Below, piece by piece: positions 1,955-35,275 of a stretch of DNA of 64,000 nucleotides (position 1 is its first letter; each line of letters begins with the position of its first letter). The notes under the pieces were generated by a model. That model ran no database searches. It saw only the letters and a list, made by a program, of their open reading frames with translations, and had not been told where the DNA came from. This stretch comes from an uncultured Candidatus Saccharibacteria bacterium. GTDB taxonomy: Bacteria; Patescibacteriota; UBA1384; GWA2-35-9; CAYZGQ01. Both the position numbers and the translations under genes were made by a program. The stretch spans positions 3,365-67,364 of the forward strand of contig CAYZGQ010000001.1 of assembly GCA_964478135.1 (NCBI GenBank), given 5' to 3'.

Positions 1955-2248
1955 ATGACCGACCGAAGTGATAAGTCTCAAGTTACCCTGCGCGTCTTTG
2001 GTCAAGTTACTGGGGTGAGTTTTCGCTACTACATCCTCCAGCAGGCCGAAAAGATTGGTCAGATTACTGGCTTTGTTCGCAACGAGTTCAACGGTTCGGT
2101 TTTGATTGTCGCCCAAGGGCCAAAAGAAAAACTAGAACGTCTTATTAAGTCGGCCAGACAGGGTTCTCGGTTGGCTCGAGTGACAAAGGTGGCGATTGAT
2201 TGGTCTGAACCCATAGATCGATTCGATAACTTCACACTAGGGCTCTAG
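1955..2248 (+). CDS. acyP: acylphosphatase
   Basis: 97 aa. VxGxVQGVxFR-like motif (VFGQVTGVSFRYY) and a GFVRN...GSV core typical of acylphosphatase. Confidence 0.75.
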   Translation: MTDRSDKSQVTLRVFGQVTGVSFRYYILQQAEKIGQITGFVRNEFNGSVLIVAQGPKEKLERLIKSARQGSRLARVTKVAIDWSEPIDRFDNFTLGL

Positions 2249-2287
2249 GTCTTTACCAATTCGCGGTCGTTCAGGTATGATCAAGCT

Positions 2288-16200: not shown

Positions 16201-19200
16201 TTTGACACTTCAACCGGCTCTAATAATTCCCATCAGGTTGAATGGAACGCCGCTACCGAGGCAAACTTCAAAAATTATCTTGTCCTGCGTTCAACCGATG
16301 ACGTCAGTTATTCGACGCTCTCAACCATTACCGATTCAACCATCCGCAACTATCGAGACTCCAGCCTTGACTCGGCTACGACTTACTACTATAAGATTCG
16401 GACGACCGACCAGGCTGACACGGCGACCGATACGGCCGCCGTGTCGAACAAACCCGGCGCCCCGACCCTCTCGGCGATTTCTTCCGGCACGCCCGGGACC
16501 AACTCGGCCACCATTACTTGGACTTCAAGCGAAAACGGCAGTTCAGAAGTTCGACTCGGGACCTCAAGCGGCAGTTATGGTCTTGGCGTTCGGGGCAACA
16601 ATGCCGACTCGGCTACCTCCCATTCCCAGTTGGTTTCAAATCTCAATCCCAATACGACCTATTACTACATCGTTAGGTCTCGAGACGGCAGTGGACTGGC
16701 GACCACCTCGGCCGAGAATAGTTTTACCACCGCGGCCAAAGTTTCAGCCAGCTCTCTTGCCTCGAGCGTCAGTCACACGACCGCCACCCTGACTTGGAAC
16801 ACCACTGGCACCAACACCTCGAGTGTTGTTGACTGGGGAACCTCAAGCGGCAGCTACAGCCGATCAGACGGCGACGCCGACGCTTCAGAGACGACCCACT
16901 CGGTTACCTTGAAAGGACTAGCTCCGGGCACGACCTATTACTGGCGGGTCAACTCGACCGATTCAAACCTAAATGCCATTACCTCGACCGAGCAGAACTT
17001 GACCACGACCGCCAGACCGGCGATTTCATCAGTCTCATCCGGCACGCCCGGTCAAACCAGCGCCGCGATCACCTTTTCGACCGACCGGTCGGTCAAGGAT
17101 GTTTTTGTTGATTACATTGCTTCCTCAACAAGCGGCGCCTGCGCCAGTGTCTCGAATGCCAAAACGGTTTCGGGCGGGATCGCCGCCAGCGCCGGCACGT
17201 CCCACAGCGTCTCTTTAACCGGTCTTTCGGCCGGCACGACCCATCGGTTCAGAGTTCGAGTGATCGAGCTTGACGCTTCAGCTGAGAGCGCCAATCAACA
17301 GGTTCAAACGATTGATGACAACTCCGGCGCCTGCTACAGCTTTACCAGCGCGACCGACTCGACCGCTCCGACTATTTCCAATCTCGCTTCCGGCAACATC
17401 ACCAACACCTCGGCGGTTATCACTTGGGAGACCGACGAGCCGGCGACCGGCCTTGTTTCGGTCAGCTCTTCAAGCGGTTTTGGTTTTGCCAGCGGCAGCC
17501 AGACAACCGCCAACCCCTCGGCCAATAATCAGAAACAGACCGCCGTTATTACCGGGTTGACCAGAAACACAACCTACTATTTCTTGGCCCGGTCGGTTGA
17601 CGGTTCAAATAATGCCACGACTGCTCCTGAAGCTTCATTCACGACGACCGGCGACGCGACCGGTCCGGTTATTTCCGGCTTGACCGCAAGCTCGATCACG
17701 ACCGACGGCGCCCTCATAACCTGGACGACCGACGAGCCGGCCACGACTCAAGTCAACTATGGCCAAACGACCAATCTGGGCTCGTCCTCGGCCAAAGATG
17801 AAAAGCTTGATCGCAATCACCGAGTCACGCTATCCGGTCTTTCGGGCGCCACGCTCTATTACTTCCAGGTGGTTTCCCAAGACGCCAACGCTAACGAGAC
17901 CAAGAGCCCTGTTTCCTCGACCACCACCTTGACCACCCAGACCGTGCCGAGTGTCTCGAGCATCTCGCTGGGAGAGATTAGTTCAAAAACAGCGACTGTC
18001 AGCTGGAGCTCCAATCTCGCTGGCGATTCGTTCGTCGATTATGGTCTGACTTCGAGTTATGGTTCGCGTCAAGGTCGAGCTGATGACAGCCAAACCGCAC
18101 ACTCAATCACTCTCTCTGGCTTGAAGTCCTCGACCACTTATTACTTTCGAGTCAGAACAAAAGATTCAAACGGCAACGAAGTCATCTCGTCTGGTTCAAG
18201 CTTTACAACCGAGAGCTCGGAAGACGATGTCTCGTCTGACAAATTGGCCCCGGTCATCAGCGGCAATGAAGCCAGCCTCTCTGGTCTAACCGATACTCGA
18301 GCGACAATCAGCTGGACAACCAACGAGGAGTCAACCTCGAGGGTGGATTATGGTCTTGACCAATCTCTCAATCAGTCCCAAAGCGACGATACTTTTGTGA
18401 CCAAGCATGAATTGAAGTTGACCGGCCTTGAAGCGGGCAAGAAGTATCGTTTTCAAGTCTCGAGTCTCGATCGAAACAAGAACCGCGGCAAAGGGAGCGT
18501 TCAAGAGTTTACGACCGCCAAGTCTTCGGCCATTTCCGACGCTTCGCTCGTCACTCAAGAGCTCGATAAACTGATCCTTTCGGTTCAAACGACCGAGGCG
18601 ACCAAGGTGAGGGCTCTCTTTGGCGCCGGTTTGGACAGACTTGACTCCGAAGTTTCAAGTCTGGGCGCCGAGACCTCGAGCCACGCCTTTGTGATCGAGA
18701 ATCTCACTCCGGGGACGGCCTATTATTTTCAGTTTTCGGTTAAGGACAAGTTTGGTCAGGAAACGACCACACCGAGTTTTTGGAAGTTTGAAACTCGAGC
18801 CTTGCCGAAAATTACGGCCGTTAATGTAACCGACCAACAGGCGACCCAGGCGGTCTTGTTGGTTTCAGTCAACACTAAAGCCCAAGTGATCGCGGCTTAC
18901 ACCGATCTTAATAGCAAAAGCCGGAGCGTTGGCTCTGGAGCGCTGGCCGAAAAGCACGAAATTAGGCTGGACGGTCTGAAACCAGAAGCAACCATTCCAG
19001 TTGCCTTGACCGCGATTGACGCATCTGGCAATCAGGCCGTTTTTCAAACCAATGTTTCGACCACCGGCGATCGGTCCGCGCCCGAATTTCAAAAAATCGA
19101 GACCGAGATTATCGGCGGGAGCGGCAACAAAGGGGCGACGATCATCGTCTCGGCGGTGCTTAGCGAGCTGGCGACACTTAATGGTCAGGCCGGTCTGGCC

Positions 19201-19461
19201 GCCAGCAATCAGACGCCGATAACCACGCCCAAAAACGCCGCCGCTAAGGAACAGACATTGGTTTTTCGGAATCTGCCTTCTGGTCAGTTTGTTAAGTTTA
19301 AGCTGATAGCCGAAGATCCGGCAGGCAATGTCACAGAGTCGCCCGACATCACCACCTTTACCCCGGAGCCGAGTAAAAGCGCTCTGACCCTTATCACGAC
19401 TCAACTTGAAACTATCTTCGGCGGTCTGGGAAAAGGCCTTCAGTCTTTATTTGGCAAGTAA
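13204..19461 (+). CDS. giant (2085 aa) surface protein: N-terminal anchor/signal, duplicated Gly-rich beta-rich module, array of FN3-like domains
   Basis: N-terminal basic stretch plus a hydrophobic helix. Two copies of a roughly 150-aa Gly-rich module (GGGxGGxGG...GGSGGSIYITAATxAG). At least 10 repeats ending in the FN3 signature (WxT...TTYYWRV, TTYYYKIR, TTYYYIVRS, TTYYFRVRTKD, TAYYFQFSVKD). Confidence 0.8.
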   Translation: MKRHLIKTLERLLHLRRRTTGRVHAHLVGRWGWYRIWHEFPFHRQVHLTSLILIVFGTLGLVLTATRPALATDYTVSTNSTWCDSGDLPASIGNLTINSGVTLTLGGTSGNAVNGQNTGGTDACSYEAPSSGVSWTMTGTGTLTVNGTIKVQSEISGSTGGTVKIDFATVTVASGGKIHADSTGFLSCNTSGCTGGGAGGGQWTSGYYGGGGGHGGKGGTGHITNGKGGSVNGNSFAPVTLGSGGAGGSQGAGGGAVYINSSGTVTVTGTVSANGEVSNSSVGGGGSGGSIYITAATVAGAGTVTTTGGDGGSASAGAGGGGRVDIRYSTANTFSVANATAATGSTGVAGDAGTIIFIDSTNKDGYIYKTFTFSAAQGIDTNLATTTDGIFNFRDLTLGDASNTATVLAISTGTSPNGKGPTLNLTGNFTLASGSTFSANGTGYSGGSTTGVGPGGGTWASGFYGGGGGYGGAGATGSSSYGVGGPTYGSASAPIDLGSEGGGDLASSSGDGGGAIRINATSGTVTINGTISANGSAGGSSVSAGGSGGSIYITAATTAGTGSITANGGAGGSGSAGGGGGGRLGLYYVTAQNHTGSRTASLGSGGTGGSAGTVTLKSIPAAPTLSSPADADGVSTTPALQFSTTNAGTNENVQYYIQIDDNSDFSSVTQTIDQTASQTGWTGQDRANGTSATAGSSFYASSTSATFTVQTALTTNTTYYWRVRAIASGGSNIYGSYSSSRSFVTNDPPQVSITNTPSQDSSGNIAINYNICDTNHSTLTMRVQFTTNNSIYTTVAAGALSGTNSFGSVTGVSSNCASPSAKTVTFDVSADSNVPASYYSAASGNWKVRIQADDGIANGQINSTASSAFELDNVSPATPTHSSPANASYTNDTTPDLTGSAYSDDTTQTNLRIQIDDNSDFSSVAVDYTKGASGVTFTVGQAVGSGTYTAGSAGQTLADGTYYFRLRYTDSKGNLSSYSTGTSFTVDATSPVAPSSFNIFDTSTGSNNSHQVEWNAATEANFKNYLVLRSTDDVSYSTLSTITDSTIRNYRDSSLDSATTYYYKIRTTDQADTATDTAAVSNKPGAPTLSAISSGTPGTNSATITWTSSENGSSEVRLGTSSGSYGLGVRGNNADSATSHSQLVSNLNPNTTYYYIVRSRDGSGLATTSAENSFTTAAKVSASSLASSVSHTTATLTWNTTGTNTSSVVDWGTSSGSYSRSDGDADASETTHSVTLKGLAPGTTYYWRVNSTDSNLNAITSTEQNLTTTARPAISSVSSGTPGQTSAAITFSTDRSVKDVFVDYIASSTSGACASVSNAKTVSGGIAASAGTSHSVSLTGLSAGTTHRFRVRVIELDASAESANQQVQTIDDNSGACYSFTSATDSTAPTISNLASGNITNTSAVITWETDEPATGLVSVSSSSGFGFASGSQTTANPSANNQKQTAVITGLTRNTTYYFLARSVDGSNNATTAPEASFTTTGDATGPVISGLTASSITTDGALITWTTDEPATTQVNYGQTTNLGSSSAKDEKLDRNHRVTLSGLSGATLYYFQVVSQDANANETKSPVSSTTTLTTQTVPSVSSISLGEISSKTATVSWSSNLAGDSFVDYGLTSSYGSRQGRADDSQTAHSITLSGLKSSTTYYFRVRTKDSNGNEVISSGSSFTTESSEDDVSSDKLAPVISGNEASLSGLTDTRATISWTTNEESTSRVDYGLDQSLNQSQSDDTFVTKHELKLTGLEAGKKYRFQVSSLDRNKNRGKGSVQEFTTAKSSAISDASLVTQELDKLILSVQTTEATKVRALFGAGLDRLDSEVSSLGAETSSHAFVIENLTPGTAYYFQFSVKDKFGQETTTPSFWKFETRALPKITAVNVTDQQATQAVLLVSVNTKAQVIAAYTDLNSKSRSVGSGALAEKHEIRLDGLKPEATIPVALTAIDASGNQAVFQTNVSTTGDRSAPEFQKIETEIIGGSGNKGATIIVSAVLSELATLNGQAGLAASNQTPITTPKNAAAKEQTLVFRNLPSGQFVKFKLIAEDPAGNVTESPDITTFTPEPSKSALTLITTQLETIFGGLGKGLQSLFGK

Positions 19462-19483: not shown

Positions 19484-20188
19484 ATGCCAGCCAGCAACGT
19501 AATTGAACTTAGATCGGTCACGAAAATCTTTGACAAGGGCAAGCCGAACGAGTTCTATGCCCTCCGAGATGTCAGTCTCGAAGTCAAGGCCGGAGAATAC
19601 TTAATTCTTTTTGGGCCGTCCGGTTCGGGCAAATCAACCCTTTTGAACATTGTGGCCGGTCTTGATCCCTACGAGAAAGGCGAGGTCTTGATCCGAGGCG
19701 AGCGGCTCTCGAAAAAAAGTCAGAACGAGCTGGCTCGCCACCGGCGGGAAAAGGTCGGTATGGTCTTTCAGCAGTTTAACCTTTTGAAAGGGATGTCTGT
19801 TCTTGACAATGTTGCTTTGCCCGATTTGTTTGCCGGTAAATCTTACAAGGTCCGGCGCAATCGGGCCAAAGAACTCTTGAGTCGGTTGGGGTTGAGTAAA
19901 ATGGCTTATCGCAAGCCCAACGAACTCTCGGGCGGACAACAGCAGAAAGTCGCGATCGCCCGGGCCCTGATTCACAACCCTTGGATTTTGCTGGTTGACG
20001 AGCCGACCGGCAATCTGGACTCCAAGTCGGCCGAAGAGGTGATGAATCTACTCAAAGACCTTAACCAGAAGGGCAAGCGGACGATCATGCTGATTACTCA
20101 TAATCCGGATTATCTTGACTATTCCAATCGGGTGGTTTACATGCGCGATGGGAAAATCGAGCGAGAAAAGAGGTCAAGATCACGATGA
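19484..20188 (+). CDS. ABC transporter ATP-binding protein (MacB/LolD/FtsE-like)
   Basis: Walker [10 protein letters not shown], signature [15 protein letters not shown], Walker [13 protein letters not shown]-loop ITHN. Confidence 0.88.
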
Positions 20189-21381
20189 GGCCGGTCGATT
20201 TTTTGAGATTAAGCCTTCAAAATATTTGGGGCAATCGTTTAAGATCAAGCCTGACTGTTTTGGGAGTTAGTATTGGCATTGGCTCAATCGTTTTTTTGGT
20301 CGGCTTAGGCTTTGGCCTGCAACGTCTGACAATTAACCGGATAATCTCTTCGGCCGCCTTGACCACCTTGGATGTCACGACCACCAAGTCGGCCCTTCTT
20401 AAGCTCGATCAAGAAGCGACCAGCCGGTTTGCCAACATCACCGGAGTTGAGGCGGTTTCGCCGATTTTCCGACTGCCTGGTCAGAGTCAGCGGGACGGGA
20501 CGGCGACCGAGACTCTGATTCAGGGGGTCGAGCCCTCGTTTTTTGACCTTGAGGGGATGAAGCTTGTAGCCGGAAGAATCCCGACAGACTTTTTAAAGCC
20601 GGTTTTGGTCGTCAGCGCGAGCACGGTCAAGCTTCTTGGTTTTGAAAGTCCGCAGGCGGCGCTCGATCAAAAACTTGAGATCCGGGCGGCAATTGTCGGC
20701 TCGGAGGACGGTGAGAATAATGGTCTGGTGGCTCAAAAAAATTATAAATTGCCAGTCGCCGGCGTGGTCGAAAACGAATCCTCGGTCGTTTATCTGCCGA
20801 TTGAGCTGGTGCGATCGGAACAGTTGATCAATTACGATCAGGTCAAGGTTAAGGCGCGCTCGATCGTGGAAATAGACCAGATCAAACAGGGAATCAGCGA
20901 CCTTGGGTTTCAGGTGACATCGGTTGCCGATTTGGTTGAGGAGGTCAATCGGATCTTTCGCTATTTCCAGATCATTATGGGCGGTTTTGGTCTAATCGCT
21001 CTCCTTGTCGCTTCGATCGGAATGTTTAATACGATGACAATCGCCCTGCTTGAGAGAACTCGGGACATAGGAGTTATGAAGGCGATCGGGGCGAGAAACT
21101 TCGACATTAAAGTCTTATTTGTCGCCGAGTCAACTATTCTAGCCGTTCTTGGCGGCTCTCTCGGAGTCTTTTTGGCTTGGTTCTTGAGCCTTTTGGTCAA
21201 CGGTTTCGTCAGCCAGATCGCCCGAGCCGGCGGCGTCGGCCCGATTGATCTCTTTTACTTCAACCCGATCTTTGTTTTGTTGGTGGTTTTGTTTTCCCTT
21301 GTTGTCGGTTTGCTAACCGGCATCTATCCGGCGCTTCGGGCCGCCAGACTCAATCCCTTAACCGCGCTAAGATACGAATAG
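20185..21381 (+). CDS. ABC transporter permease, MacB-like periplasmic domain plus FtsX 4-TM domain
   Basis: An N-terminal TM, a large extracytoplasmic domain, then C-terminal FtsX-like helices (GMFNTMTIALLERTRDIGVMKAIGA). The start overlaps the ATPase stop. Confidence 0.8.
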   Translation: MRPVDFLRLSLQNIWGNRLRSSLTVLGVSIGIGSIVFLVGLGFGLQRLTINRIISSAALTTLDVTTTKSALLKLDQEATSRFANITGVEAVSPIFRLPGQSQRDGTATETLIQGVEPSFFDLEGMKLVAGRIPTDFLKPVLVVSASTVKLLGFESPQAALDQKLEIRAAIVGSEDGENNGLVAQKNYKLPVAGVVENESSVVYLPIELVRSEQLINYDQVKVKARSIVEIDQIKQGISDLGFQVTSVADLVEEVNRIFRYFQIIMGGFGLIALLVASIGMFNTMTIALLERTRDIGVMKAIGARNFDIKVLFVAESTILAVLGGSLGVFLAWFLSLLVNGFVSQIARAGGVGPIDLFYFNPIFVLLVVLFSLVVGLLTGIYPALRAARLNPLTALRYE

Positions 21382-21411: not shown

Positions 21412-23517
<2,106 letters not shown>

Positions 23518-23548: not shown

Positions 23549-23854
23549 ATGGCTCGATCAACCAGCACTCGTTCAATAAGCCAGCAGACCGTTCGTCACA
23601 TCGCTGGCTTGGCTCGACTTAAACTTTCAGACGAGGCAGTCAAACTTGCCTCAAGTCAGCTGTCAGTGATTTTGGGTCATATGGCAGATCTTGAACAGGT
23701 TGACACGACTGGAGTAGAGCCGATTGGTCAAATAGCTGATTTGTCCAATGTTTTCCAACCAGATGAGCCAGGTTCATGCTTAAGTCAGGAGCAGGTGCTG
23801 GCTCAAGTTAAATCAAAACAAGCCGGTCGGCTAAAGGTGCGGTCGGTATTGTAA
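23549..23854 (+). CDS. gatC: Asp/Glu-tRNA amidotransferase subunit C
   Basis: 101 aa. VRHIAGLARLKLSDEE...LDQVDTTGVEP is the typical GatC signature. Located immediately upstream of gatA. Confidence 0.75.
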   Translation: MARSTSTRSISQQTVRHIAGLARLKLSDEAVKLASSQLSVILGHMADLEQVDTTGVEPIGQIADLSNVFQPDEPGSCLSQEQVLAQVKSKQAGRLKVRSVL

Positions 23855-23956: not shown

Positions 23957-25444
23957 ATGGCAGTACCAAAAACAATCGCCCTGGCTTACCGGGCGCTTCA
24001 AAAAAGAGACATCAGCTCGGTCGAACTGACGCGAGCTGTTCTCGATCAGATTAGGCAGTTTGATCCGCAAATCAAGGCCTTTCTTTATTTTGATCAAGAT
24101 CAGGCTATAACACAGGCTAGGGCGAGTGACAGTCGCAGACGCTCCGGTCAATCAAAAGGCATTTTGGACGGAATTCCGATCGCGCTCAAGGACGTTTTGG
24201 TCACAACTGACATGCCCACGACCGCCGCGTCCAAGATTCTGGAAGGCTTTATGTCAGCCTACGACGCAACAGTGGTTGCGAAACTTAGGTCCCAAGGCGC
24301 GGTACTAATCGGCAAGACGAACATGGACGAGTTTGCCATGGGTTCTTCGACCGAGAATTCGGCCTACGGGCCGACAAAAAATCCATGGGATCTAGGGCGC
24401 GTGCCGGGTGGATCATCCGGAGGCAGTGCGGCCGCGCTGGCCGCTGGAATGTGTCTGGCCGCGCTTGGTTCGGATACAGGAGGTTCAATTCGCCAGCCAG
24501 CCAGTTTTTGCGGCGTGGTCGGCTTTAAGCCGAGCTATGGCGCTGTTTCGCGCTACGGTTTAATCGCTATGTCGTCGAGTCTCGATCAGATCGGACCGAT
24601 GACCCAAACAGTAGCAGATGCTAAGATATTGTTTGAAGCTATCAAGGGTCAGGATCGGTCAGACGCAACGAGCGTTCAAATTAAAAGACCAACTAGGAGC
24701 AACCGTCAGGTTAAGGCAATAGGTCTTGCCAAAGAGTACTTTGGTCAGGGACTAGATTCACAGGTGAAACCATTGGTTGTCAGAGCGATTGAACTGCTTG
24801 CTCGATCAACCGGGGCAGATATTGTTGAGATATCTTTACCGAACGCCCGCTTTAGCGTCTCGGTCTACTACATTTTAATGTCGAGCGAAGTGGCCAGTAA
24901 TCTGGCGCGCTACGATGGAGTTAAGTACGGCTTGCAGATTCAAGGCGACACTTTGCTCGAGAGTTACCTTGAAAGCCGTTCCAAGGGTTTTGGTCAAGAG
25001 GCTAAGCGCCGGATTATGCTGGGTACTTTTTCTTCGTCAGCCGGCTATAGCGATCAGTATTACCAGAAAGCCCAGCTCGCGCGGGCCAAAATTAAGCAGG
25101 ACTTTGATCAGGCGTTCGAAAAGGTTGATTTAATCGCCGCGCCAGTCGCTCCAACTACCGCGTTCAAGCTAGGTGAAAAGGTTGACCAGCCTCTTCAAAT
25201 GTACCTTTCAGATATTTACACTATTCCAACCAATCTAGCTGGTTTGCCCGGTATTTCAATTCCTTGCGGTTTGGTTGAGGGTCTGCCTGTTGGTCTCCAG
25301 TTGATGGCTAATCGATTTGAGGACGAGTTTTTACTCGATATTGGTCAAAAATACGACCAGGCGCGCGGTCAGTTACCCGGTCCACCATATACTAGCGGTA
25401 CTAATGCCAAGGGAAGACAGATCAAAGTGAGATTAAAGTTATGA
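23957..25444 (+). CDS. gatA: Asp/Glu-tRNA amidotransferase subunit A (amidase signature family)
   Basis: Amidase signature GGSSGGSAAALAAG and catalytic Ser-cisSer-Lys context (IALKD). 495 aa. Confidence 0.92.
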   Translation: MAVPKTIALAYRALQKRDISSVELTRAVLDQIRQFDPQIKAFLYFDQDQAITQARASDSRRRSGQSKGILDGIPIALKDVLVTTDMPTTAASKILEGFMSAYDATVVAKLRSQGAVLIGKTNMDEFAMGSSTENSAYGPTKNPWDLGRVPGGSSGGSAAALAAGMCLAALGSDTGGSIRQPASFCGVVGFKPSYGAVSRYGLIAMSSSLDQIGPMTQTVADAKILFEAIKGQDRSDATSVQIKRPTRSNRQVKAIGLAKEYFGQGLDSQVKPLVVRAIELLARSTGADIVEISLPNARFSVSVYYILMSSEVASNLARYDGVKYGLQIQGDTLLESYLESRSKGFGQEAKRRIMLGTFSSSAGYSDQYYQKAQLARAKIKQDFDQAFEKVDLIAAPVAPTTAFKLGEKVDQPLQMYLSDIYTIPTNLAGLPGISIPCGLVEGLPVGLQLMANRFEDEFLLDIGQKYDQARGQLPGPPYTSGTNAKGRQIKVRLKL

Positions 25445-25893
25445 AAAAGCGACTGAACAATCAGCCTTCCTATCAAGAGAAAGTCTTTGACGCCTTGATT
25501 GGTGGAGTAGGCAAGATCGTCGGTTTAGTACGAATTAGCCCTAAATCGAGCAGACCGATCAAGTCAATTGATCGTTTGGAGATCACCACTCGCTGGCGTC
25601 AGATCGAGCAGAGTCATCGTTTAGGAGGTTCATCTGGGCTCAAGCAGGCGGTGATTGAAGCCGATAATCTGCTCGATAAGGCATTGAGAATGAAAGTTTC
25701 AGGCCAAACTATGGGGGAACGTTTAATTAACGCTCAAAGCTTAATAAGTTCTCAAGCCTATCAAGCCGCCTGGGAAGGACATAAACTGCGCAACCGTATT
25801 GTTCACCAAGACCAGAGCGAGGTGTTGAGTTTTGAGACAGAACAGGCGCTTAAGGGTTTCAAACAAGCTCTTCTCGAATTGGGAGGATTATGA
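25441..25893 (+). CDS. hypothetical protein with HEPN-like Rx4H motif, inserted between gatA and gatB
   Basis: 150 aa. Both ends overlap their neighbours by 4 nt (ATGA). The C-terminal helix region contains KLRNRIVHQ, i.e. R-x4-H, as in HEPN domains. Confidence 0.5.
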   Translation: MKKRLNNQPSYQEKVFDALIGGVGKIVGLVRISPKSSRPIKSIDRLEITTRWRQIEQSHRLGGSSGLKQAVIEADNLLDKALRMKVSGQTMGERLINAQSLISSQAYQAAWEGHKLRNRIVHQDQSEVLSFETEQALKGFKQALLELGGL

Positions 25894-27308
25894 ATCATTA
25901 CAGACCGATTATCGGACTTGAGATACACGCAGAACTGTCAACCAAGACTAAAATGTTCTGCCGTTGTCCCAACCCAATCTATCTTAGTAAAAAGGTTGAG
26001 ACTAGGCGGACTGATAAGACAAGTCAAGAAAAAAGGGCAAAATTAACGCCAAACACTCTTGTTTGCCCGGTCTGTCTTGGAATGCCGGGCAGTCTTCCAG
26101 TTATGAATGAGACTGCGGTGAAACTAACTATGCGAACCGGCCAGGCTCTTAACTGCACAATCGCCCAGTTTACCAAGTGGGATCGCAAGAACTATTTTTA
26201 TCCAGATCTACCTAAAAACTATCAAATCTCACAATATGATCTACCTCTGGCTTATGACGGATTTCTTGACTTGGAAGGAGCAAGCGGACAAGGCAAGATC
26301 AGGATCACTAGGATCCATCTGGAGGAAGACACCGGTCAATTGGTTCATTTATCAAATGGTTCCAGTTTGGTTGATTACAACAGAGCGGGCGTGCCTTTGA
26401 TTGAATTAGTGACGCAACCAGACATAGACTCGGCTGAACAGGCTAAGCAATTCGCTAAGGAGTATCAGCAGATTTTAAGAGTTTTGGCTGTTTCAAGCGC
26501 CGATATGGAGCAGGGTGAGATGAGAGTTGAGGTTAACGTGTCCCTAACGCGAATCAGCTCGAATCTCGATTCGAATCCAGCCGGTGTTGGGACTAAGGTG
26601 GAAGTTAAAAATTTAAATAGTTTTAGGTCGGTTGAGCGGGCGATTAACTACGAGATCAACCGACAGACTAAAATACTTGATTCTGGGATTAAGGTCGTTC
26701 AGGAAACAAGAGGTTGGGATGAGTCAAAGCAAAAAACATTCAGTCAGAGGGTCAAGGAAACAGCGGCTGATTACCGCTACTTTCCTGAACCAGATCTGCC
26801 ACCGATAGATACAACTAAAATTTCCCTTGACCCAATACCGGAGTTACCAATTAACCGTCGTCGTCGCTATATCGGTTTGGGGATTACCGATTCTGACGCC
26901 AAGGTGATCGTGGGCGATCGCAAAAGGGAGCAGATACTCGATCAAGTGATAACACAATCACCTAAAAGCGCCAAAAAAATAGCCAATTTTTTGGTCAATA
27001 AACCCCAGGCAGTTAATCTTGGAGTTAAAGAACTGACAAGAATCGCTCGGTTCTCGGCTCATCAGCAAAAGCAATCCTTCAAGGCTGGTCGGGCAATATC
27101 TCAAGTGAACCAAGACCGATTAGCCGGCTCGGGGCAGATCGTCAGTGCGCTTGATCGCGTATTCGATTCAAACCAAGACGCGGTCGATAAATACAAAGCT
27201 GGCAAAAAACAAGTCATCGGTTTTTTAGTTGGTCAGGTTATGTCAGAACTTAAAGGGCAGGCAGACCCTGGTTTGATCAGACAGGCAATTGAGAAAGCTC
27301 TCGAGTAG
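25890..27308 (+). CDS. gatB: Asp/Glu-tRNA amidotransferase subunit B
   Basis: N-terminal IGLEIHAEL...KMFCRC and central GatB/E motifs. 472 aa. Confidence 0.92.
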   Translation: MNHYRPIIGLEIHAELSTKTKMFCRCPNPIYLSKKVETRRTDKTSQEKRAKLTPNTLVCPVCLGMPGSLPVMNETAVKLTMRTGQALNCTIAQFTKWDRKNYFYPDLPKNYQISQYDLPLAYDGFLDLEGASGQGKIRITRIHLEEDTGQLVHLSNGSSLVDYNRAGVPLIELVTQPDIDSAEQAKQFAKEYQQILRVLAVSSADMEQGEMRVEVNVSLTRISSNLDSNPAGVGTKVEVKNLNSFRSVERAINYEINRQTKILDSGIKVVQETRGWDESKQKTFSQRVKETAADYRYFPEPDLPPIDTTKISLDPIPELPINRRRRYIGLGITDSDAKVIVGDRKREQILDQVITQSPKSAKKIANFLVNKPQAVNLGVKELTRIARFSAHQQKQSFKAGRAISQVNQDRLAGSGQIVSALDRVFDSNQDAVDKYKAGKKQVIGFLVGQVMSELKGQADPGLIRQAIEKALE

Positions 27309-27445: not shown

Positions 27446-30400
27446 TTGATCCCGCTGGCACAAGCAGGCCAGCTTTTTGGCTATTCAGCCGGTCATATGA
27501 ACTATTTAGCCCGGTCAGGGAAAATAATCGCTTTGAAACTCGGGGGTCAGTGGTACACGACTCGGGCGGCTGTTTCAGCCTACCAGGCCGGTCAACCCCA
27601 ACCGGAAAACCCGACCGGATTTATGTCTTTAGCCCAAGCGGCCAAGCAGTATGGCTATAGCGCCGGACATCTCAACCTTTTAGCCCGAGAAGGTAAGCTT
27701 GAAGCGGTGAAACTTGGGCGAAACTGGTACACGACCGAGCGCGCTATCGACCAGTACCGACAAGGCGTGCGTGAGATAGAATTAGTGCCAGATAGTCCTG
27801 ACCCGGCGCTCCAGATATCCCAGCCAGAAAATATTAATGTTAAAGTCAGGCCAGTAGCCAGTTACCAGGGATTTGGCATAACCGAAACCGATGATGACGC
27901 GCCAGGTCCGACCGGGGGATTTAGGCTCAAGTCAGTTATGGTCAGCCGTGGTTTTAAGCTCGGGTTGATCACACTTATAGTGTCTGGGCTGGCTTTTGGA
28001 CTGGGACGACTGGTTCAAGGCTGGCGCACGGGTGAGTTGAATGGACTGGGGCCATCTGGCATCGCGGCTTATTTGTTTGGTGGAGAGTTGGCCCAAGGAG
28101 ATCGTCTGGGCTCGGGTTTTCTCGGCAGTATCACACGAGAGCGAGCTCAATCCGATACGCCTGGGGTCAGACCCGAGGCGAGCCCTAGTCCGGACACTGT
28201 GGTCAATAACACGACAGTCAACAACTATAACCAGACCGTTAACAACGACAATCGTCAGGTGACAAACATCAGTACAACCAAAACTGCTAAAGATATTGTT
28301 GGAGAGTTATCCGACCCGCAGGTGAGTGATGACATCACGATTAACTCGAGCAAGGCTGGTTCGTTTAGTCCAAGCGGTAACACTACTGCCTTGACGGTCA
28401 AGCAAAGTTCAGCCAGTCCCTCGGAAACCCCGATCGTTAAGATTCAAAACGCGTCTGGGGCTAACCTTGTCACAGTTGATTTTGAAGGCAATTTAGGTCT
28501 GGCTGGTGGATCTAGATTGGAAATAGGCGGTCAGCAAATAGGAATTGCCAATCTAGCGGATGGATCTTCTATCGCGTCTCTTTCCGGTAGTCAAACTCTG
28601 ACTAATAAAACTTTGAGCGCGGGCGTTATCTACCAAGGATCGGCGATTAGCCCGAGCTACGGCGGGACCGGTCTAACATCAGCTCCCAGCAACGGCCAAC
28701 TCTTGATCGGCAATGGCTCGGGTTATACTCTGGCGGCTCTAACGGCTGGGACGGCAATTAATGTGACCAACGGTTCTGGTTCAATTACGATCGCTAATTC
28801 AGGTGTTACCTCGCTATCTGCCGGAACCGGCATCGCTGTTAGCGGTTCGTCGGGCGCGGTTACACTGACCAATTCGGGCGTGACCGCTCTGACCGGCACA
28901 ACCAACCAGGTCAGCCTGTCTGGTTCAACCGGTTCGATCACCATCTCAACGCCCCAAAACATTCATACCGGCGCCAGTCCAACCTTTTCAAGGCTCAATT
29001 TATCCGAGGCGTCCAATCAGTTGGTTCTTCAGTCAAATAGTGTTACAGGCAGTCTGACCTGGACGCCGGTCACATCCAATAAAACGATCACTCTGCCTAA
29101 TCTCACCGGAACCGCTTTTTTGATTGATGGAGGCCAGACGATCAGCTCTGCTGTCTGGAACGCTAGCGCTATCGGCCCGAGCTATGGCGGGACTGGTCAG
29201 ACGACCCTGGCCAAGGGTGATATTTTGTATGGCTCGGCGACTGATATTTGGTCGCGACTGGCTGTTGGCAGTATTGGTTATGTCCTCCAGGTCTCCCTAG
29301 ACGGCGTTCCAGAATGGGCGACTATTTCTTCCTTATCTGTTGGTAATGCTGACACGCTTGATTCGCTTGATTCAGCGGATTTTTTGCGCGCGACCGCCTC
29401 GGACACTTTTGAAGGAGTTAATTCAAGAACCCTGACCATTCAGTCTGATCTTTCCTCAGGCGCGAGGACGGTTGACCTTTTGACGATCAGCCAGGCGAAC
29501 GATCCAACCAATAACTTTACGACTGGCAATCTCCTAACAATTGCCCAACTCGACACCGGTTCGTCGGCCGATGCCTTAGAACTTAATCAGACTGGATCTG
29601 GTAAGGCTATTAACATTGTTTCAGGCGAGCTGGCGACAGCCGGCAACATCGTTCAAACCGGGGCAACCACGCTGTCAACCGGCACGGGCGCGGTCTCGCT
29701 CGGGGGTGACACGACCATCGCTACTGGAAAGAACTTGACTCTCGCGTCCGGGACAGGCACTTTTAGTCAGATTTTTAGTAATACGACCGGTACTGGAGCA
29801 AACTGGAATATCACTAACTCTGGTTCTTCTGGGACTAACACTGTTGGCGGGATAGGATTAGTGTTGGCTGGAACCGCCAACACGACTGGTTCGAATGTGA
29901 TTAATGCTATTAATTTTTCCAATGTCCCTCCGGCGACCAATAATTCTTATTACGCCCTGAATGTCGGAACCGGCTTTACTGATATTGTACGCTACAATGG
30001 CGCCCAGTTGATCTCTGGCTCGGGTGTCATTCAATCGGCCGCGCTTTCTGGTAACTACACTGGTGTTACTGGAGTTGGGATTTTATCCACCGGCACCTGG
30101 AATGCAGACACAATCATCTTTGCCAAGGGCGGCACGGGCTTAACAGCCACGCCCAGCAATGGCCAACTCTTGATCGGCAATGGCTCGGGTTACACTCTGG
30201 CCGGCTTAACCGGCACTACCAATCAGATCAATGTCGCTAGCGGGGCCGGTTCGATCACCCTCTCAACTCCCCAAAACATCCATACCGCCGCCAGTCCAAC
30301 CTTTGCCGGTTTGACTTTGTCCGACTTGACCCCTGGTTCTTTGGTCTTTGCCGGCGCCGGCGGGGTGATCAGCCAGGACAACGCCAAGTTCTTCTGGGAT

Positions 30401-32896
30401 CAGACAAATACTCGATTGGGTCTCGGGACAAGTTCGCCACTTTTTCCGATTCATGTTGTTAGATCGGGCGGTGGCGGGACGTTGAATTTTGACACTTACG
30501 CCGGTTCTGGACTGGGCAACAGCGCCATTCAAGGTCGGCGGGCGGCCGGAACTTTGGCCAGCCCGACAGCCACTCTGTCGGATATGACTCTGTTCGATCT
30601 GCTTGGGTCTGGCTACGACGGTTCAGCTTTCACCGGACAGATCGCTTCGATACGCATGCAAGCCAATCAGAATTTTAGCCCGACCAGTCAGGGCACCAGG
30701 ATTGTCTTTTTGACCACGGCCAATGATTCGACGACCGCGACTGAACGGCTGCGGATCAAACACAATGGCGATGTGGCAATCGGCAACGGCTCGACCGATC
30801 AGATATTATTTGGTTCGACCGGCTCGGCGGTCTTCAACGAACAGGGCAATGATGCCGATTTTCGGGTCGAGGGCGACACCGACGCCAATCTATTGTTCAC
30901 CGACGCTTCGGCCGATGTCTTGGGTGTCGGCACCGCGACCTTCGAAGCCAACACCCGCAAGATGGAGGTGAGATACACCGATACCGCGACCTCCGGAGGC
31001 ACCTTTTCAACGATTAGATTGCTTTCGGACATCAATGCTCCTTCTAACTCCACGGCATCCCATTTTGGTCTAGGAACGACTTTAAGAACCGCGAGCGGCA
31101 ACGCTTCCAACTACACCGACTCCACGACAGGTATTAAGGCGATGAACTTTGTCGTCCAGCACCGAGGCACAGGCACGGTTACTAGAATGACAGGCTTGGG
31201 CGGCAATGTCACCAACAGCTCAAGCGGTACGATTACGACTGCCGAGAGCATCGTGGCTGGGGTTGACCTGACCTCAACCGGTCCGATTACTACTTGGAAC
31301 GCCCTGCGGGTCTTCGCGCCCTCTATCACTGGCTCTGGGGTGCTGACTAACGCTCGCGGGCTTTACATCAGTAACATCACAGGGGCCTCCACGCAGAATC
31401 TAGCTATCCTGACAGAAGGGGGCGGAGTAGTCTTTAATGAAAACGGCACGGACAGCGATTTCCGGGTCGAGGGCGACACCGATGCCAATCTATTGTTCAC
31501 CGACGCTTCGGCTGATCGGGTTGGTATAGGGACAAACACCCCTTCGCTCAAACTTCACGTGGTGGACAACTCTTCAACTTCGGCTATTTTCCAGCGCAAC
31601 AGCACTGCCACCGGTTCGAGTGTTGGCTCAACGGTTTTTTTGGATAATTTGGACACCACGACCAACAATGGAGCTCGTTTGATTTTTAGAACCAACGATA
31701 CTGGCGGCGCAACCAGGCAAGCGGCTGGAATAGGCTCGCTCGTAACCGCCCGGGGTGCTAGCAGTGTGACTGGCGATCTGGTATTCCTGACCAACAACAA
31801 CTCAACCGGCGTTTCCGAGGTTGCTCGGTTAACCGGAGCGGGCGCGCTTGGCATTGGTGAGTCGCCGGCGGCCAATATGAAGCTTGATGTCGCTGGCCGG
31901 GTTCAGATTAATCTGGCCGGAACCCAAACCTCGGTTGCCTTGTGCGGTAGTCACCCGGCTGGCGGCGGGGCCTCGGTTTCCGATGTCGAGATTGTTGACT
32001 GCACCGGCACGCCGGCGGCTGACTATGCCGAGATCTATCCGGTTTCAAACGATGTTGAATACACTGATTTAGTGGCTATCGGACCGGATTCGGTTAAAAC
32101 CACCGATCAAAACTCGATTCAAAGGCTAGTCAAAGCTACGATCGCCAATCAAGCCAACACTTTAGGAGTCGTTGTTGACAACTACGGCGATTTCTCCTCG
32201 GTCGGTCACAACATTAAAGGTTCTGATAATCCCAAACCGGTCGCGCTTTCAGGCCGGGTGAGAGTGAAAGTTTCCGGCCAGTCGGGCGCGATAGCGCCCG
32301 GCGATTATCTGACCGCCTCGTCCAAACCCGGTCGGGCGATGAAGGCGACCTCAAGCGCCAAGATAGTTGGAGTGGCTTTGGGATCATTTAGCGGCGACGA
32401 GGGGACGGTAATGATGTTTGTCAGCAATTTCTGGTATAATCCGTCTTCGGGCGAGAGTATTCAGGGTACCCAAACTGCATCCTACCAGGCGCTCGAAGTT
32501 GCCGGCCTTTTGCGAACGAATCTTTTGGAGGTTGCCGGGCCAGCCGAGTTCAAAGGTAGTTTAGTTGTCTGGGGTGAAACAACCTTTAAGGCACCGGTTG
32601 TGGTTCAAAAGACGCTGACTGCTAAAGAAAAGATCGTGTCCAAAGGTGACCTTGAGCTCAAGGGCAATCTTGTTCTAAACCCCGACATTAAAGGGTCAGC
32701 CTTGCCAGTGACTAAGGGCGCGACCAGCCTTGAGGTCGTGTTTAGCAAGCCCCAAGCTGACACAAGCTACTTGGCTTTCGTCACGCCATCCCAGCCGATC
32801 GGTTTTGGCGTTACCAAACAATCTGACAAAATGATCGTTACCTTTGAGGCCGAGGCGCCGGAAGGATTAATCCTGGATTGGCTGATAGTCAGATGA
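27446..32896 (+). CDS. giant (1816 aa) membrane protein: two N-terminal excisionase-type HTH modules, one TM helix, long S/T/G-rich repetitive extracytoplasmic region
   Basis: Two tandem roughly 45-aa units (LAQAGQLFGYSAGHMNYLARSGKIIALKLGGQWYTT and LAQAAKQYGYSAGHLNLLAREGKLEAVKLGRNWYTT) match the HTH_17/excisionase pattern. A TM helix follows (FKLGLITLIVSGLAFGL). There are near-identical internal DNA repeats. The start codon is TTG as given by the ORF track, with no ATG and no SD in frame upstream, so the start is uncertain. Confidence 0.7.
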   Translation: MIPLAQAGQLFGYSAGHMNYLARSGKIIALKLGGQWYTTRAAVSAYQAGQPQPENPTGFMSLAQAAKQYGYSAGHLNLLAREGKLEAVKLGRNWYTTERAIDQYRQGVREIELVPDSPDPALQISQPENINVKVRPVASYQGFGITETDDDAPGPTGGFRLKSVMVSRGFKLGLITLIVSGLAFGLGRLVQGWRTGELNGLGPSGIAAYLFGGELAQGDRLGSGFLGSITRERAQSDTPGVRPEASPSPDTVVNNTTVNNYNQTVNNDNRQVTNISTTKTAKDIVGELSDPQVSDDITINSSKAGSFSPSGNTTALTVKQSSASPSETPIVKIQNASGANLVTVDFEGNLGLAGGSRLEIGGQQIGIANLADGSSIASLSGSQTLTNKTLSAGVIYQGSAISPSYGGTGLTSAPSNGQLLIGNGSGYTLAALTAGTAINVTNGSGSITIANSGVTSLSAGTGIAVSGSSGAVTLTNSGVTALTGTTNQVSLSGSTGSITISTPQNIHTGASPTFSRLNLSEASNQLVLQSNSVTGSLTWTPVTSNKTITLPNLTGTAFLIDGGQTISSAVWNASAIGPSYGGTGQTTLAKGDILYGSATDIWSRLAVGSIGYVLQVSLDGVPEWATISSLSVGNADTLDSLDSADFLRATASDTFEGVNSRTLTIQSDLSSGARTVDLLTISQANDPTNNFTTGNLLTIAQLDTGSSADALELNQTGSGKAINIVSGELATAGNIVQTGATTLSTGTGAVSLGGDTTIATGKNLTLASGTGTFSQIFSNTTGTGANWNITNSGSSGTNTVGGIGLVLAGTANTTGSNVINAINFSNVPPATNNSYYALNVGTGFTDIVRYNGAQLISGSGVIQSAALSGNYTGVTGVGILSTGTWNADTIIFAKGGTGLTATPSNGQLLIGNGSGYTLAGLTGTTNQINVASGAGSITLSTPQNIHTAASPTFAGLTLSDLTPGSLVFAGAGGVISQDNAKFFWDQTNTRLGLGTSSPLFPIHVVRSGGGGTLNFDTYAGSGLGNSAIQGRRAAGTLASPTATLSDMTLFDLLGSGYDGSAFTGQIASIRMQANQNFSPTSQGTRIVFLTTANDSTTATERLRIKHNGDVAIGNGSTDQILFGSTGSAVFNEQGNDADFRVEGDTDANLLFTDASADVLGVGTATFEANTRKMEVRYTDTATSGGTFSTIRLLSDINAPSNSTASHFGLGTTLRTASGNASNYTDSTTGIKAMNFVVQHRGTGTVTRMTGLGGNVTNSSSGTITTAESIVAGVDLTSTGPITTWNALRVFAPSITGSGVLTNARGLYISNITGASTQNLAILTEGGGVVFNENGTDSDFRVEGDTDANLLFTDASADRVGIGTNTPSLKLHVVDNSSTSAIFQRNSTATGSSVGSTVFLDNLDTTTNNGARLIFRTNDTGGATRQAAGIGSLVTARGASSVTGDLVFLTNNNSTGVSEVARLTGAGALGIGESPAANMKLDVAGRVQINLAGTQTSVALCGSHPAGGGASVSDVEIVDCTGTPAADYAEIYPVSNDVEYTDLVAIGPDSVKTTDQNSIQRLVKATIANQANTLGVVVDNYGDFSSVGHNIKGSDNPKPVALSGRVRVKVSGQSGAIAPGDYLTASSKPGRAMKATSSAKIVGVALGSFSGDEGTVMMFVSNFWYNPSSGESIQGTQTASYQALEVAGLLRTNLLEVAGPAEFKGSLVVWGETTFKAPVVVQKTLTAKEKIVSKGDLELKGNLVLNPDIKGSALPVTKGATSLEVVFSKPQADTSYLAFVTPSQPIGFGVTKQSDKMIVTFEAEAPEGLILDWLIVR

Positions 32897-33447: not shown

Positions 33448-34581
33448 ATGACTAAACGTCTCATCGTTGCGGGCGCTCTAATTTTGGCACTTTTGATTGG
33501 CGGAGCCGGCGGAGCGGCCTTTGTTTTGATCAGTGGTATTTCGAGTGTTCCGTCAGGCGCTATTGGGTCGGCCAAAAGTGATGCCAGCCGGGTTGAGAAA
33601 GTGGTTGTCGAGCAGTCATCGGGCGTGATAGACAGTGTTAAGAAAGTTTCTTCATCGGTTGTGGCGATCACTGTTAAGGGACAAGTGATTGATTTCTTTT
33701 TTGGACCAGTTTCTACCAGTTCGGCCGGCACTGGTTTTATCGTTACTGCCGATGGGTTAATTATCACTAATAAACATGTTGTTGCGGACGATAAGTCGGA
33801 ATACACGGTTTTCTTGCCAGACGGACGAAATTTTTCGGCCAAGGTGGTTGACCGCGACCCGCTCCAGGATTTGGCCTTTATTAAGATCGAGTCGAACGGT
33901 TTGCCGGTGGTTGAGTTGGGAGATTCTGACCGATTACAGGTAGGCGAGCAGGTGATTGCGATCGGCAACGCCTTGGGCGAGTTTCAAAATACAGTAACAG
34001 TTGGAGTGATTTCAGCCAAGAATCGTCAGATTACGGCATCAAACGGGGGTCAGGCCGAACCACTATCCGGCCTTTTACAAACCGATGCGGCCATCAACTC
34101 GGGCAACTCCGGCGGCCCGCTGGTTAATTTACGCGGTCAAGTGATCGGGATTAACACCGCTACCGCGACCAAGGGCGCCGCCGAAGGAATTGGCTTTGCC
34201 ATACCGACTAACACTGTTAAGCCTTCTTTAACCAGGATTACTAAACTCGGCCGAATTGCTCGGCCAATGCTTGGAGTTAGGTTTGCCAACATCACAAAAG
34301 AGTTGGCTGACCTGGAAAACTTGCCGGTTACTCAAGGCGCTTTGCTCGTGTCAGATGTCCAGGGTCGCCAACAAGCGGTTGTGGCCGGCGGACCGGCTGA
34401 CAAAGCCGGCCTTAAAAACGGTGACATTATTAGCCACATTAATGGTGATAAGATTGATCAGAGTAACTCTTTGCCCCAATTGATTGATCAGTATAACCCG
34501 GGGGACACGGTTGAGCTGACCGTGATCCGAGACCAAAAGACGCTCAAGATCAAAGTTCGACTCGAGGAGCTCAAGGTTTAG
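33448..34581 (+). CDS. htrA: HtrA/DegP-family serine protease with PDZ domain
   Basis: Catalytic triad context: His (TNKHVV), Asp, and Ser in GNSGGPLVN. C-terminal PDZ. N-terminal TM anchor. Confidence 0.85.
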   Translation: MTKRLIVAGALILALLIGGAGGAAFVLISGISSVPSGAIGSAKSDASRVEKVVVEQSSGVIDSVKKVSSSVVAITVKGQVIDFFFGPVSTSSAGTGFIVTADGLIITNKHVVADDKSEYTVFLPDGRNFSAKVVDRDPLQDLAFIKIESNGLPVVELGDSDRLQVGEQVIAIGNALGEFQNTVTVGVISAKNRQITASNGGQAEPLSGLLQTDAAINSGNSGGPLVNLRGQVIGINTATATKGAAEGIGFAIPTNTVKPSLTRITKLGRIARPMLGVRFANITKELADLENLPVTQGALLVSDVQGRQQAVVAGGPADKAGLKNGDIISHINGDKIDQSNSLPQLIDQYNPGDTVELTVIRDQKTLKIKVRLEELKV

Positions 34582-34597: not shown

Positions 34598-35275
34598 CTA
34601 GCTGGCTGGCGAGGGGCTTGGGCTAGCGGCTGATTGGCCAGTTTGACGGGCGAACACAATGTAACGTTTGACGAGCGTGCCCGGAGGCCAAGAGGTTTGG
34701 AGAGTTATGGTTTTGTCTTTCGGATCTTTGGGCGTTGGGTCTAGAACCGAGAAGTCGTCAGAGGCGACCACCTTCTTGCCAAAGACCTCGTATTGGTAGG
34801 CGACATTTTTGTAATAGACGATGAACCGATCGCCTTTGTCGAGTTTGTCGATACTTTTGAAGATTTCTTTAAGTTCTGGTTTACCCGGGAAGTTTTTAAA
34901 GTAGCTCGAGTGACCGAAGATGTACATATTTCCCAGTTGGTCCGGTTTCTGGCTACCTTTTAGATGTGCGACACCGAGCTGGGAGGTGATTTTTTGATAG
35001 ACCGGTTCGTTAGCCCCGTCAACATCCGCGATAATTGGAACCCGGATGCTGATTTTTTCGATCTCAAGACCAAATTCTTTGATCTCGACTGGTTCTGGCA
35101 GGGAACTTTGATTAAGCCCTGAAGGAGAGGCAGAGGGTTGAACGATTGATACGTTCAAGCCTGACTTTACCAAAGCAAGCGTTCCGGCAACAACCATAGC
35201 GCTTGCTAGTCCAATACCAAGAATAACTAGCTTTTTTTGAGTAGTCACTTGTGGCAAGACAGATTGTGGGTTCAC
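34598..35275 (-). CDS. sortase-fold protein (class E-like) with Ser at the catalytic Cys position
   Basis: N-terminal TM anchor. Catalytic His context (NMYIFGHSSYF). TLQTSWPPGTLVKRYIVFA aligns with the sortase TLxTC...R active-site strand, but it is encoded as acc-tct-tgg (Ser), which I verified by reverse-complementing 34650-34700. The GTG start overlaps the TGA stop of the upstream LPKTG gene. Confidence 0.65.
   Translation of the reverse strand: MNPQSVLPQVTTQKKLVILGIGLASAMVVAGTLALVKSGLNVSIVQPSASPSGLNQSSLPEPVEIKEFGLEIEKISIRVPIIADVDGANEPVYQKITSQLGVAHLKGSQKPDQLGNMYIFGHSSYFKNFPGKPELKEIFKSIDKLDKGDRFIVYYKNVAYQYEVFGKKVVASDDFSVLDPTPKDPKDKTITLQTSWPPGTLVKRYIVFARQTGQSAASPSPSPAS

Follow-up and report, generated by a model that had tools for sequence, protein, structure and literature searches.

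The gat operon of an uncultured Candidatus Saccharibacteria bacterium contains, between gatA and gatB, a 150-amino-acid (aa) open reading frame (ORF) that is best read as a housekeeping HEPN ribonuclease (RNase) or RNA-binding partner of the pathway of the tRNA-dependent amidotransferase GatCAB. The operon lies in a 64,000-nucleotide stretch of contig CAYZGQ010000001.1, referred to here as the window. The gene, which we term ORF X, begins with ATG and occupies positions 25441 to 25893 of the forward strand, as given by the ORF listing and the raw sequence. A reading made from the DNA alone (the sequence-only reading) had hedged between a Gat accessory protein and an embedded RNase, and we infer that this remains the best reading of the gene.

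A predicted HEPN fold with an intact motif

The features of ORF X to which the text refers are as follows.

25441 to 25893, + strand: ORF X, HEPN-superfamily protein specific to the Candidate Phyla Radiation (CPR)
25471 to 25527, + strand: N-terminal helix, residues 11–29, a helix in the AlphaFold2 model and the counterpart of the transmembrane (TM) anchor in most members
25573 to 25890, + strand: HEPN core, residues 45–150, from DSSP on the model, with a topology that fits the HEPN definition
25663 to 25665, + strand: D75, acidic residue of helix 2 and predicted active-site acid, invariant in 150 sequences
25714 to 25725, + strand: G92-E93-R94-L95, family-specific motif in the insert between helices 2 and 3, from conservation
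25780 to 25806, + strand: H114-K-L-R117-N118-R-I-V-H122, Rx4H motif with an extra histidine, from alignment and model
25882 to 25886, + strand: GGAGG, Shine-Dalgarno sequence for gatB in the last codons of ORF X, 3 nt before the gatB ATG, read from the sequence

The fold of the product was predicted with AlphaFold2 from a 33-sequence alignment. The model had a mean predicted local distance difference test score (pLDDT) of 89.1, with values of at least 93 over residues 41–150. DSSP assigned a first helix at residues 11–29, followed by a linker and by helices at 45–61 (helix 1), 63–85 (helix 2), 104–122 (helix 3) and 130–146 (helix 4), with a short helix at 91–97 falling in the insert between helices 2 and 3. 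The top structures returned by Foldseek were 2hsb, 5yep, 7ae2 and 6m6u, with probabilities of 0.98–1.00 and target-normalised TM-scores of 0.50–0.63; HepT toxins are among these nearest solved structures.

Three characters define the HEPN domain (PMC3710099): four helices form an up-down bundle in which an insert separates helix 2 from helix 3, helix 3 ends in an Rx4-6H motif whose arginine is followed by a polar residue (N/D/H), and helix 2 carries a conserved acidic residue. All three characters are present in ORF X, as judged from the model and the alignment. The sequence-only reading had taken KLRNRIVHQ for the HEPN Rx4H motif, and this assignment is borne out: the peptide spans residues 115–123, with R117 encoded at 25789–25791 and H122 at 25804–25806, and the stretch R117-N118-R-I-V-H122 closes helix 104–122 on its C-terminal side. 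In an alignment of 150 sequences D75, H114, R117 and N118 were invariant and H122 was at least 90% conserved; a histidine stood at R+5 in 173 of the 183 sequences that matched the motif. The family consensus is RNRIVHE, and the window protein reads RNRIVHQDQ. The acidic residue D75 lies within helix 63–85, in which D79 is also at least 90% conserved, and D79-x3-R83 resembles an Ex3[KR] motif. H114 sits in helix 3, one helical turn upstream of the Rx4H motif. The GERL motif of the insert was invariant in 33 sequences, and its R94 and L95 were at least 90% conserved in the 150; with W52 and W111, this insert counts among the conserved positions on the surface of ORF X. In sum, the model predicts the four helices of a HEPN fold, and the R-N-x3-H motif is intact, accompanied by the helix 2 acid and an additional invariant histidine.

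The lack of a HEPN profile hit, which the sequence-only reading had named as a refuting result, was formally observed for the window protein, but the HEPN assignment holds by fold and active-site motif. The window protein had no match in Pfam or NCBIfam, even at E ≤ 10, and none of 150 family members reached the gathering threshold of DUF4145 (PF13643), HEPN_Swt1 (PF18731), HEPN_RiboL-PSP, DUF86 or HEPN (PF05168). The sub-threshold Pfam matches that recurred most among these members were nevertheless to HEPN-clan models, namely HEPN_Swt1 in 13 (best E 2.4 × 10−4), RiboL-PSP in 7, Cthe2314 in 5, pEK499_p136 in 3, and Ymh and DUF4145 in 2 each. Searching PDB sequences with the single protein gave one weak match, to colicin N (E 0.36), which is noise, and family profiles gave matches at chance level only (RanGAP1, ribosomal protein S20). 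Since all three defining characters are present and no curated family was matched, ORF X is a member of the HEPN superfamily that falls outside every family described in it.

A coherent Saccharimonadales subclade of about nine sequences carries alanine, threonine or asparagine in place of H122, and keeps H114, R117, N118 and the gatA-X-gatB context. These proteins (P0018, P0031, P0033, P0039–P0041, P0044, P0047 and P0048; for example L007, 4001–4441) share the sequence WFGHKLRN[RK][IL]x[ATN][DE]P.

A core family of the CPR

A word-indexed search found 52 homologues of ORF X, of 130–215 aa and all unnamed hypothetical proteins; those with a taxon label were Patescibacteria (Saccharimonadales, Portnoybacteria). 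An exhaustive HMMER search across 1.84 billion representatives, clustered at 50% identity, returned 1,457 clusters at E ≤ 10−3 and 219 at E ≤ 10−10, with homologues reaching E values of 10−25 to 10−32. When one genome per species was scanned, at least 587 species genomes held a relative of ORF X, and the best 80 of these were nearly all Saccharibacteria, including Nanosynbacter, with one Berkelbacteria. Hundreds of species carry the gene in one copy, at a fixed place in the genome. These data show, from sequence comparison, that ORF X is a real conserved gene, far beyond a chance ORF, and they are best explained by a core family that is inherited vertically.

The family was seen only in the CPR (Patescibacteria). 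Occurrence outside this group was considered and rejected: the records labelled as other phyla are mis-binned Saccharibacteria contigs, because the six loci concerned (L017, L039, L041, L052, L069 and L076) are 67–93% identical in nucleotide sequence to Saccharibacteria loci. The contigs had been deposited in metagenome-assembled genomes (MAGs) of Binatia, Verrucomicrobiia, Dormiibacterota, Magnetospirillaceae, Limnocylindrales and Bacteriovoracaceae, and the labels probably reflect binning contamination in public MAGs.

Beyond automated labels in one supplementary table, practically no description of the family exists. UniRef automatically names one member, P0028, a 'DUF4145 domain-containing protein'. 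The HEPN survey makes no mention of gatA, gatB or an amidotransferase (PMC3710099), and our literature search found no paper linking HEPN or DUF4145 to gatB, amidotransferase, the CPR or Patescibacteria.

Coupling to gatA and gatB

The genes that surround ORF X in the window are, in order:

21427 to 23517, + strand: ligA, NAD-dependent DNA ligase (Pfam DNA_ligase_aden, OB and BRCT), conserved in its position upstream of the gat genes
23549 to 23854, + strand: gatC (Pfam GatC, E 5.5 × 10−14)
23957 to 25444, + strand: gatA, amidase subunit (Pfam Amidase, E 1.2 × 10−152)
25890 to 27308, + strand: gatB (Pfam GatB_N, E 6.5 × 10−110; partial match only to GatB_Yqey)

Both junctions of ORF X read ATGA. 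Its ATG (25441–25443) overlaps the TGA of gatA (25442–25444) within positions 25441–25444, and its own TGA (25891–25893) is overlapped by the ATG of gatB (25890–25892) within positions 25890–25893. The two overlaps had been reported in the sequence-only reading, and their coordinates agree. The base composition is native to the operon, with a guanine-plus-cytosine content of 0.461 for ORF X against 0.452 for gatB and 0.484 for gatC.

The arrangement is kept across relatives. In 135 of the 169 loci sampled, gatA, X and gatB were directly adjacent on one strand, so that absence or non-conservation of the gene in related gatCAB operons is ruled out. This total comprises 76 of 89 loci in the first collections and 59 of 80 in an independent metagenome scan, or 59 of the 64 loci in that scan that were informative on both sides; the scan was seeded with a distant family member, and context was established by local tblastn with the GatA and GatB of the window. 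Family-wide, the distance from the gatA stop to the X start had a median of −4 nt, with overlap in 80%, and that from the X stop to the gatB start a median of 0 nt, with overlap in 48%, these distances being taken to the nearest in-frame start and hence biased toward short values. The tight coupling to the amidotransferase genes that had been proposed from the window therefore extends to the family.

Linkage to either neighbour was also found separately. In distant, longer members of Parcubacteria type the order is ligA-gatC-gatA-X, with X overlapping gatA and gatB located elsewhere (L005, L090, L091 and L092). Where a membrane-anchored peptidyl-prolyl isomerase (PPIase) of cyclophilin type parts X from gatA, X still abuts gatB. 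The best explanation of these patterns is that ORF X is co-transcribed and translationally coupled with GatCAB, as far as gene order can indicate.

Several variant loci were recorded. The order gatA-PPIase-X-gatB occurs in L010 (4252–4950), L011 (2159–2827), L127 (3018–3866), L151 (3038–3883) and L001/L002 (812–1480 and 2237–2905, respectively). In L011, from Berkelbacteria, a DNA methyltransferase and an endonuclease-like gene, forming a restriction-modification pair, also lie between the PPIase and X, and X abuts gatB. In L001, a close relative, a 542-aa protein without Pfam match (2006–3634) is encoded between X and gatB, with overlaps at both junctions.

The N-terminal helix and membrane topology

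The best N-terminal 19-residue Kyte-Doolittle window reached 1.6 or more in 123 of 197 homologues, while that of the window protein was 1.48. Hydropathy windows and charge statistics, on which the calls of TM-like segments rest, marked 125 of the 197 as TM-like. In these members a median of 4 residues preceded the segment, and the net charge was −0.3 before it and +2.8 after it; the positive-inside rule was obeyed by 90%. From this charge pattern the HEPN domain is predicted to be cytoplasmic. In most lineages, therefore, the HEPN domain is predicted to lie on the cytoplasmic side of the membrane, held there by an N-terminal TM helix. Helix 11–29 of the window protein is instead amphipathic, with a hydrophobic moment of 0.33–0.48, as are the corresponding helices of its nearest relatives, which suggests that in this lineage the TM anchor has become an amphipathic helix.

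In P0002 and P0003, which are among the closest homologues, the N-terminal hydrophobic helix ends in a W-P pair (...LLTWPFRR and ...LVTWPFRAR, respectively). This recalls the WP-signature TM helix of DUF4145-like membrane HEPN proteins (PMC3710099), though the pair is unconserved family-wide and may be a coincidence.

A fitness defect at the corresponding locus of Southlakia epibionticum

Published transposon insertion sequencing (Tn-seq) of Southlakia epibionticum covers a gene in the same position. SEML1_0535 is a 420-bp hypothetical gene between gatA and gatB (PMC10633639, Table S1), which overlaps gatA (SEML1_0536) by 4 nt and gatB (SEML1_0534) by 1 nt (PMC10633639). It was flagged as belonging to a core, Patescibacteria-enriched family (PMC10633639, Tables S1 and S2). 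Its Tn-seq classification is GD/GD/ES, with normalized reads falling from 126.6 to 5.9 and then to 2.8, and reads in the gene after gatB stay above 1,500 (PMC10633639). ORF X appears to be important for growth. In the same source, DPAM assigned SEML1_0535 to e1wtyA1, a HEPN-type domain described as 'nucleotidyltransferase substrate binding subunit/domain', and ProtNLM named it 'DUF4145'; the main text mentions neither SEML1_0535 nor HEPN nor amidotransferase, and leaves polarity unaddressed (PMC10633639). These data, like the N-terminal helix (residues 11–29), the membrane anchor, the conservation of H114 and the CPR-wide distribution, had no part in the sequence-only reading.

Weighing the function of ORF X

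We tentatively favour, at somewhat below even confidence, the view that ORF X is a core, CPR-specific HEPN protein co-expressed and coupled with GatCAB. It would act as a metal-independent endoribonuclease, as other HEPN domains with a retained motif do, or at least as an RNA-binding module; the RNase activity that characterises the superfamily leaves 2′,3′-cyclic phosphate ends (PMC3710099). Its substrate would come from the co-expressed pathway and might be tRNA(Gln), tRNA(Asn) or their mischarged Glu- and Asp- forms; one possible role would be quality control or turnover at a membrane-proximal transamidosome. There is precedent in HEPN RNases that cut tRNA, among them PrrC/RloC, HepS and the HEPN toxin of structure 7ae2, which trims tRNA 3′ ends. 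Several points weigh against this view. The window protein stays below threshold for every curated HEPN model, and RNase activity, RNA binding and interaction with GatCAB are predicted properties of ORF X. Operon membership is by itself no proof of functional coupling, and at a few loci X stands apart from the gat genes: in L009 it follows genes for glycyl-tRNA synthetase (GlyRS) and a DHH/DHHA1 phosphoesterase, in L115 a RecF-like gene, and in L153 and L170 a metallo-beta-lactamase-fold (MBL) hydrolase gene. SEML1_0535 is taken as the orthologue by position, size and fold rather than by sequence, and the drop in its Tn-seq reads may be a polar effect on the essential downstream gatB. The subclade lacking H122, finally, suggests either an alternative site based on H114, of the kind proposed for the second histidine of AF0298-like HEPN proteins (PMC3710099), or a binding rather than a catalytic role.

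Bacterial HEPN families are mostly conflict or defence genes (PMC3710099) and HepT toxins are close structural neighbours of the model, so ORF X might have been a toxin or defence gene, of toxin–antitoxin or abortive-infection type, inserted in the gat operon. No minimal nucleotidyltransferase (MNT) is encoded within about 8 kb of ORF X, in keeping with the earlier remark that an adjacent MNT partner was lacking; none adjoins X among the gene calls of the homologous loci examined, and no other antitoxin neighbour was seen there. The family has no tyrosine at H+2, the position of the AMPylation tyrosine of RX4HXY in HepT/MntA type VII toxin–antitoxin pairs, and PADLOC and PHROGs gave no match for it; a scan of viral contigs gave no copies. 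Native composition, and the single copy that hundreds of species keep at one fixed locus, also speak against such an origin, as does the finding that disruption in Southlakia was deleterious rather than neutral. The toxin or defence reading is largely refuted already, and we give it almost no credence. It is unlikely, though deserving of serious weight, that ORF X is instead a general housekeeping, membrane-tethered endoribonuclease for mRNA or rRNA decay or processing, whose place in the gat operon is a frozen accident of gene order without functional link to transamidation. An intact motif behind a TM or amphipathic anchor would suit such an enzyme, and the membrane-bound decay RNases RNase Y and RNase E have an analogous layout. 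The family is core and its disruption in Southlakia is costly, some members stand beside other genes of RNA or DNA metabolism (L009 and L115, above), and for membrane HEPN proteins RNA processing at the inner membrane face has been predicted (PMC3710099). The linkage to gatA and to gatB, however, persists independently, which makes an accident unlikely across class-level divergence. Southlakia moreover encodes RNase Y (non-essential) and RNases J, III and P (PMC10633639), and there is therefore no obvious gap for a general RNase. The proposal that ORF X fills in for a missing membrane RNase was rejected on account of the same four enzymes.

Tight translational coupling would also suit a stoichiometric partner, and ORF X could be a non-catalytic HEPN adaptor or regulator that binds GatA/GatB, non-discriminating GluRS/AspRS, a nucleotide or tRNA, and tethers or regulates the transamidosome at the membrane, in the manner of binding HEPN-fold proteins such as MtlR/YggD and the nucleotidyltransferase substrate-binding domains. 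Lineage-specific helpers of GatCAB exist elsewhere (GatF in yeast mitochondria, Hp0100 in Helicobacter pylori), which counts in favour of an adaptor, as do the DPAM placement of the Southlakia counterpart and the retention of gene and context in the subclade without H122. Non-catalytic HEPN domains, on the other hand, typically lose Rx4-6H (PMC3710099), whereas invariant R117, N118, H114 and D75, together with H122 in at least 90% of sequences, make up an active-site signature; we hold the adaptor reading to be quite doubtful. A more specific proposal, which we regard as rather improbable, adds ORF X to the transamidosome as a fourth component peculiar to the CPR: a HEPN nuclease, tethered to the membrane, would dock on GatCAB and cleave or retain mischarged Glu-tRNA(Gln) and Asp-tRNA(Asn), or the same tRNAs in uncharged form.

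Comparison with known systems

ORF X shares with the minimal HEPN forms, that is the AF0298-like HEPN-T protein 2hsb and the DUF86/HepT proteins 5yep, 7ae2 and 6m6u, the up-down arrangement of four helices, the insert that parts helix 2 from helix 3, R-[N]-x3-H where helix 3 ends, the helix 2 acid and a core of about 105 residues. As in AF0298-type proteins, a second conserved histidine occurs upstream of the motif, but H114 of ORF X lies in helix 3 and not in the insert. Unlike HepT/DUF86, ORF X has no MNT antitoxin partner, no RX4HXY tyrosine and no link to mobile or defence elements. The family further differs from the minimal forms in the N-terminal membrane anchor predicted for most members, its restriction to the CPR, its fixed place in a translation-related housekeeping operon and its similarity below every curated model threshold.

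A single N-terminal TM segment followed by a cytoplasmic HEPN domain with a conserved motif, as predicted for most X members, is also the layout of the bacterial membrane HEPN proteins of Anantharaman et al. 2013 (DUF4145-like with the WP-signature TM; Abi2/Swt1-like with one TM; PMC3710099), and TM-linked bacterial HEPN groups are predicted to process RNA at the inner membrane face (PMC3710099). The likeness extends to the weak profile matches of ORF X, which are mostly to HEPN_Swt1, and to the automated naming of some members as DUF4145. The membrane groups of that survey are, however, unreported with gatCAB, and they have sensor-like N-terminal domains or the WP signature, which are generally absent in X (PMC3710099).

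Outside the superfamily, ORF X resembles GatF of yeast mitochondria and Hp0100 of the Helicobacter pylori Asn-transamidosome in being a small, extra, lineage-restricted protein associated with the amidotransferase. GatF and Hp0100 are not of HEPN fold, lack an RNase motif and have demonstrated physical and kinetic roles, whereas what is shown for ORF X is genomic coupling. Among eukaryotic proteins, Las1, the KEN domain of Ire1 and RNase L, and C6orf70 offer a parallel, in that core RNA processing took over HEPN domains that came from conflict systems. Two of them, Ire1 and C6orf70, are anchored in the membrane and hold their HEPN domain in the cytosol (PMC3710099). Unlike ORF X, these proteins are multidomain and act on other substrates, and there is no specific sequence relationship.

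Other features of the window

In a Pfam scan the neighbours of ORF X in the window were ligA, gatC, gatA, gatB and surface proteins. The product of gatB has a C-terminal tail that matches only positions 91–148 of the 148-position GatB_Yqey model, with residues ~311–413 divergent, and an additional basic segment of ~25 residues between its N-terminal Cys pairs (residues ~27–57). Directly 3′ of gatB lies an ORF of 1816 aa (27446–32896, + strand), whose TTG start is uncertain. Its N-terminus carries two tandem excisionase-type segments resembling HTH_17 (GYSAGH.N.LAR.GK...KLG..WYT), one of them above the Pfam threshold; next come a hydrophobic stretch and a repetitive region of great length, rich in Gly, Thr, Ser and Asn. 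A DNA-binding-type helix-turn-helix at the head of a giant surface-like protein is an odd pairing. Further downstream are genes for an HtrA-like protease (33448–34581) and a sortase (34598–35275, − strand). Upstream, a 2085-aa protein with at least 7 repeats of Pur_ac_phosph_N/FN3 type (13204–19461, + strand) resembles a giant surface protein, and its gene is followed by a MacB-type ABC transporter pair (19484–21381). Across the 64-kb window ARAGORN found no tRNA genes, and no Rfam family reached its gathering threshold.

Implications

Nearly all that is known of HEPN domains in bacteria concerns toxins and defence effectors. ORF X is a core gene with an intact motif, and maybe an essential one, and it represents a new HEPN family in a new, housekeeping and translation-linked context, built into the operon for Gln-tRNA and Asn-tRNA formation in a huge and poorly understood bacterial radiation. 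A curated profile for the family would annotate more than 1,000 hypothetical proteins. Because Southlakia epibionticum is genetically tractable and a fitness defect has already been seen at the locus, the role of the gene is directly testable. If ORF X acts on tRNA or GatCAB, it would point to a layer of quality control or spatial organisation in translation that is peculiar to the CPR, and would be a bacterial counterpart to the eukaryotic recruitment of HEPN domains into core RNA biology (Las1, Ire1). If it were a fourth transamidosome component, quality control of aminoacyl-tRNA would be tied to the membrane in bacteria for which the indirect pathway is the only route, and ORF X would be the first HEPN RNase in bacteria to serve translation in an essential housekeeping capacity, outside conflict and defence.

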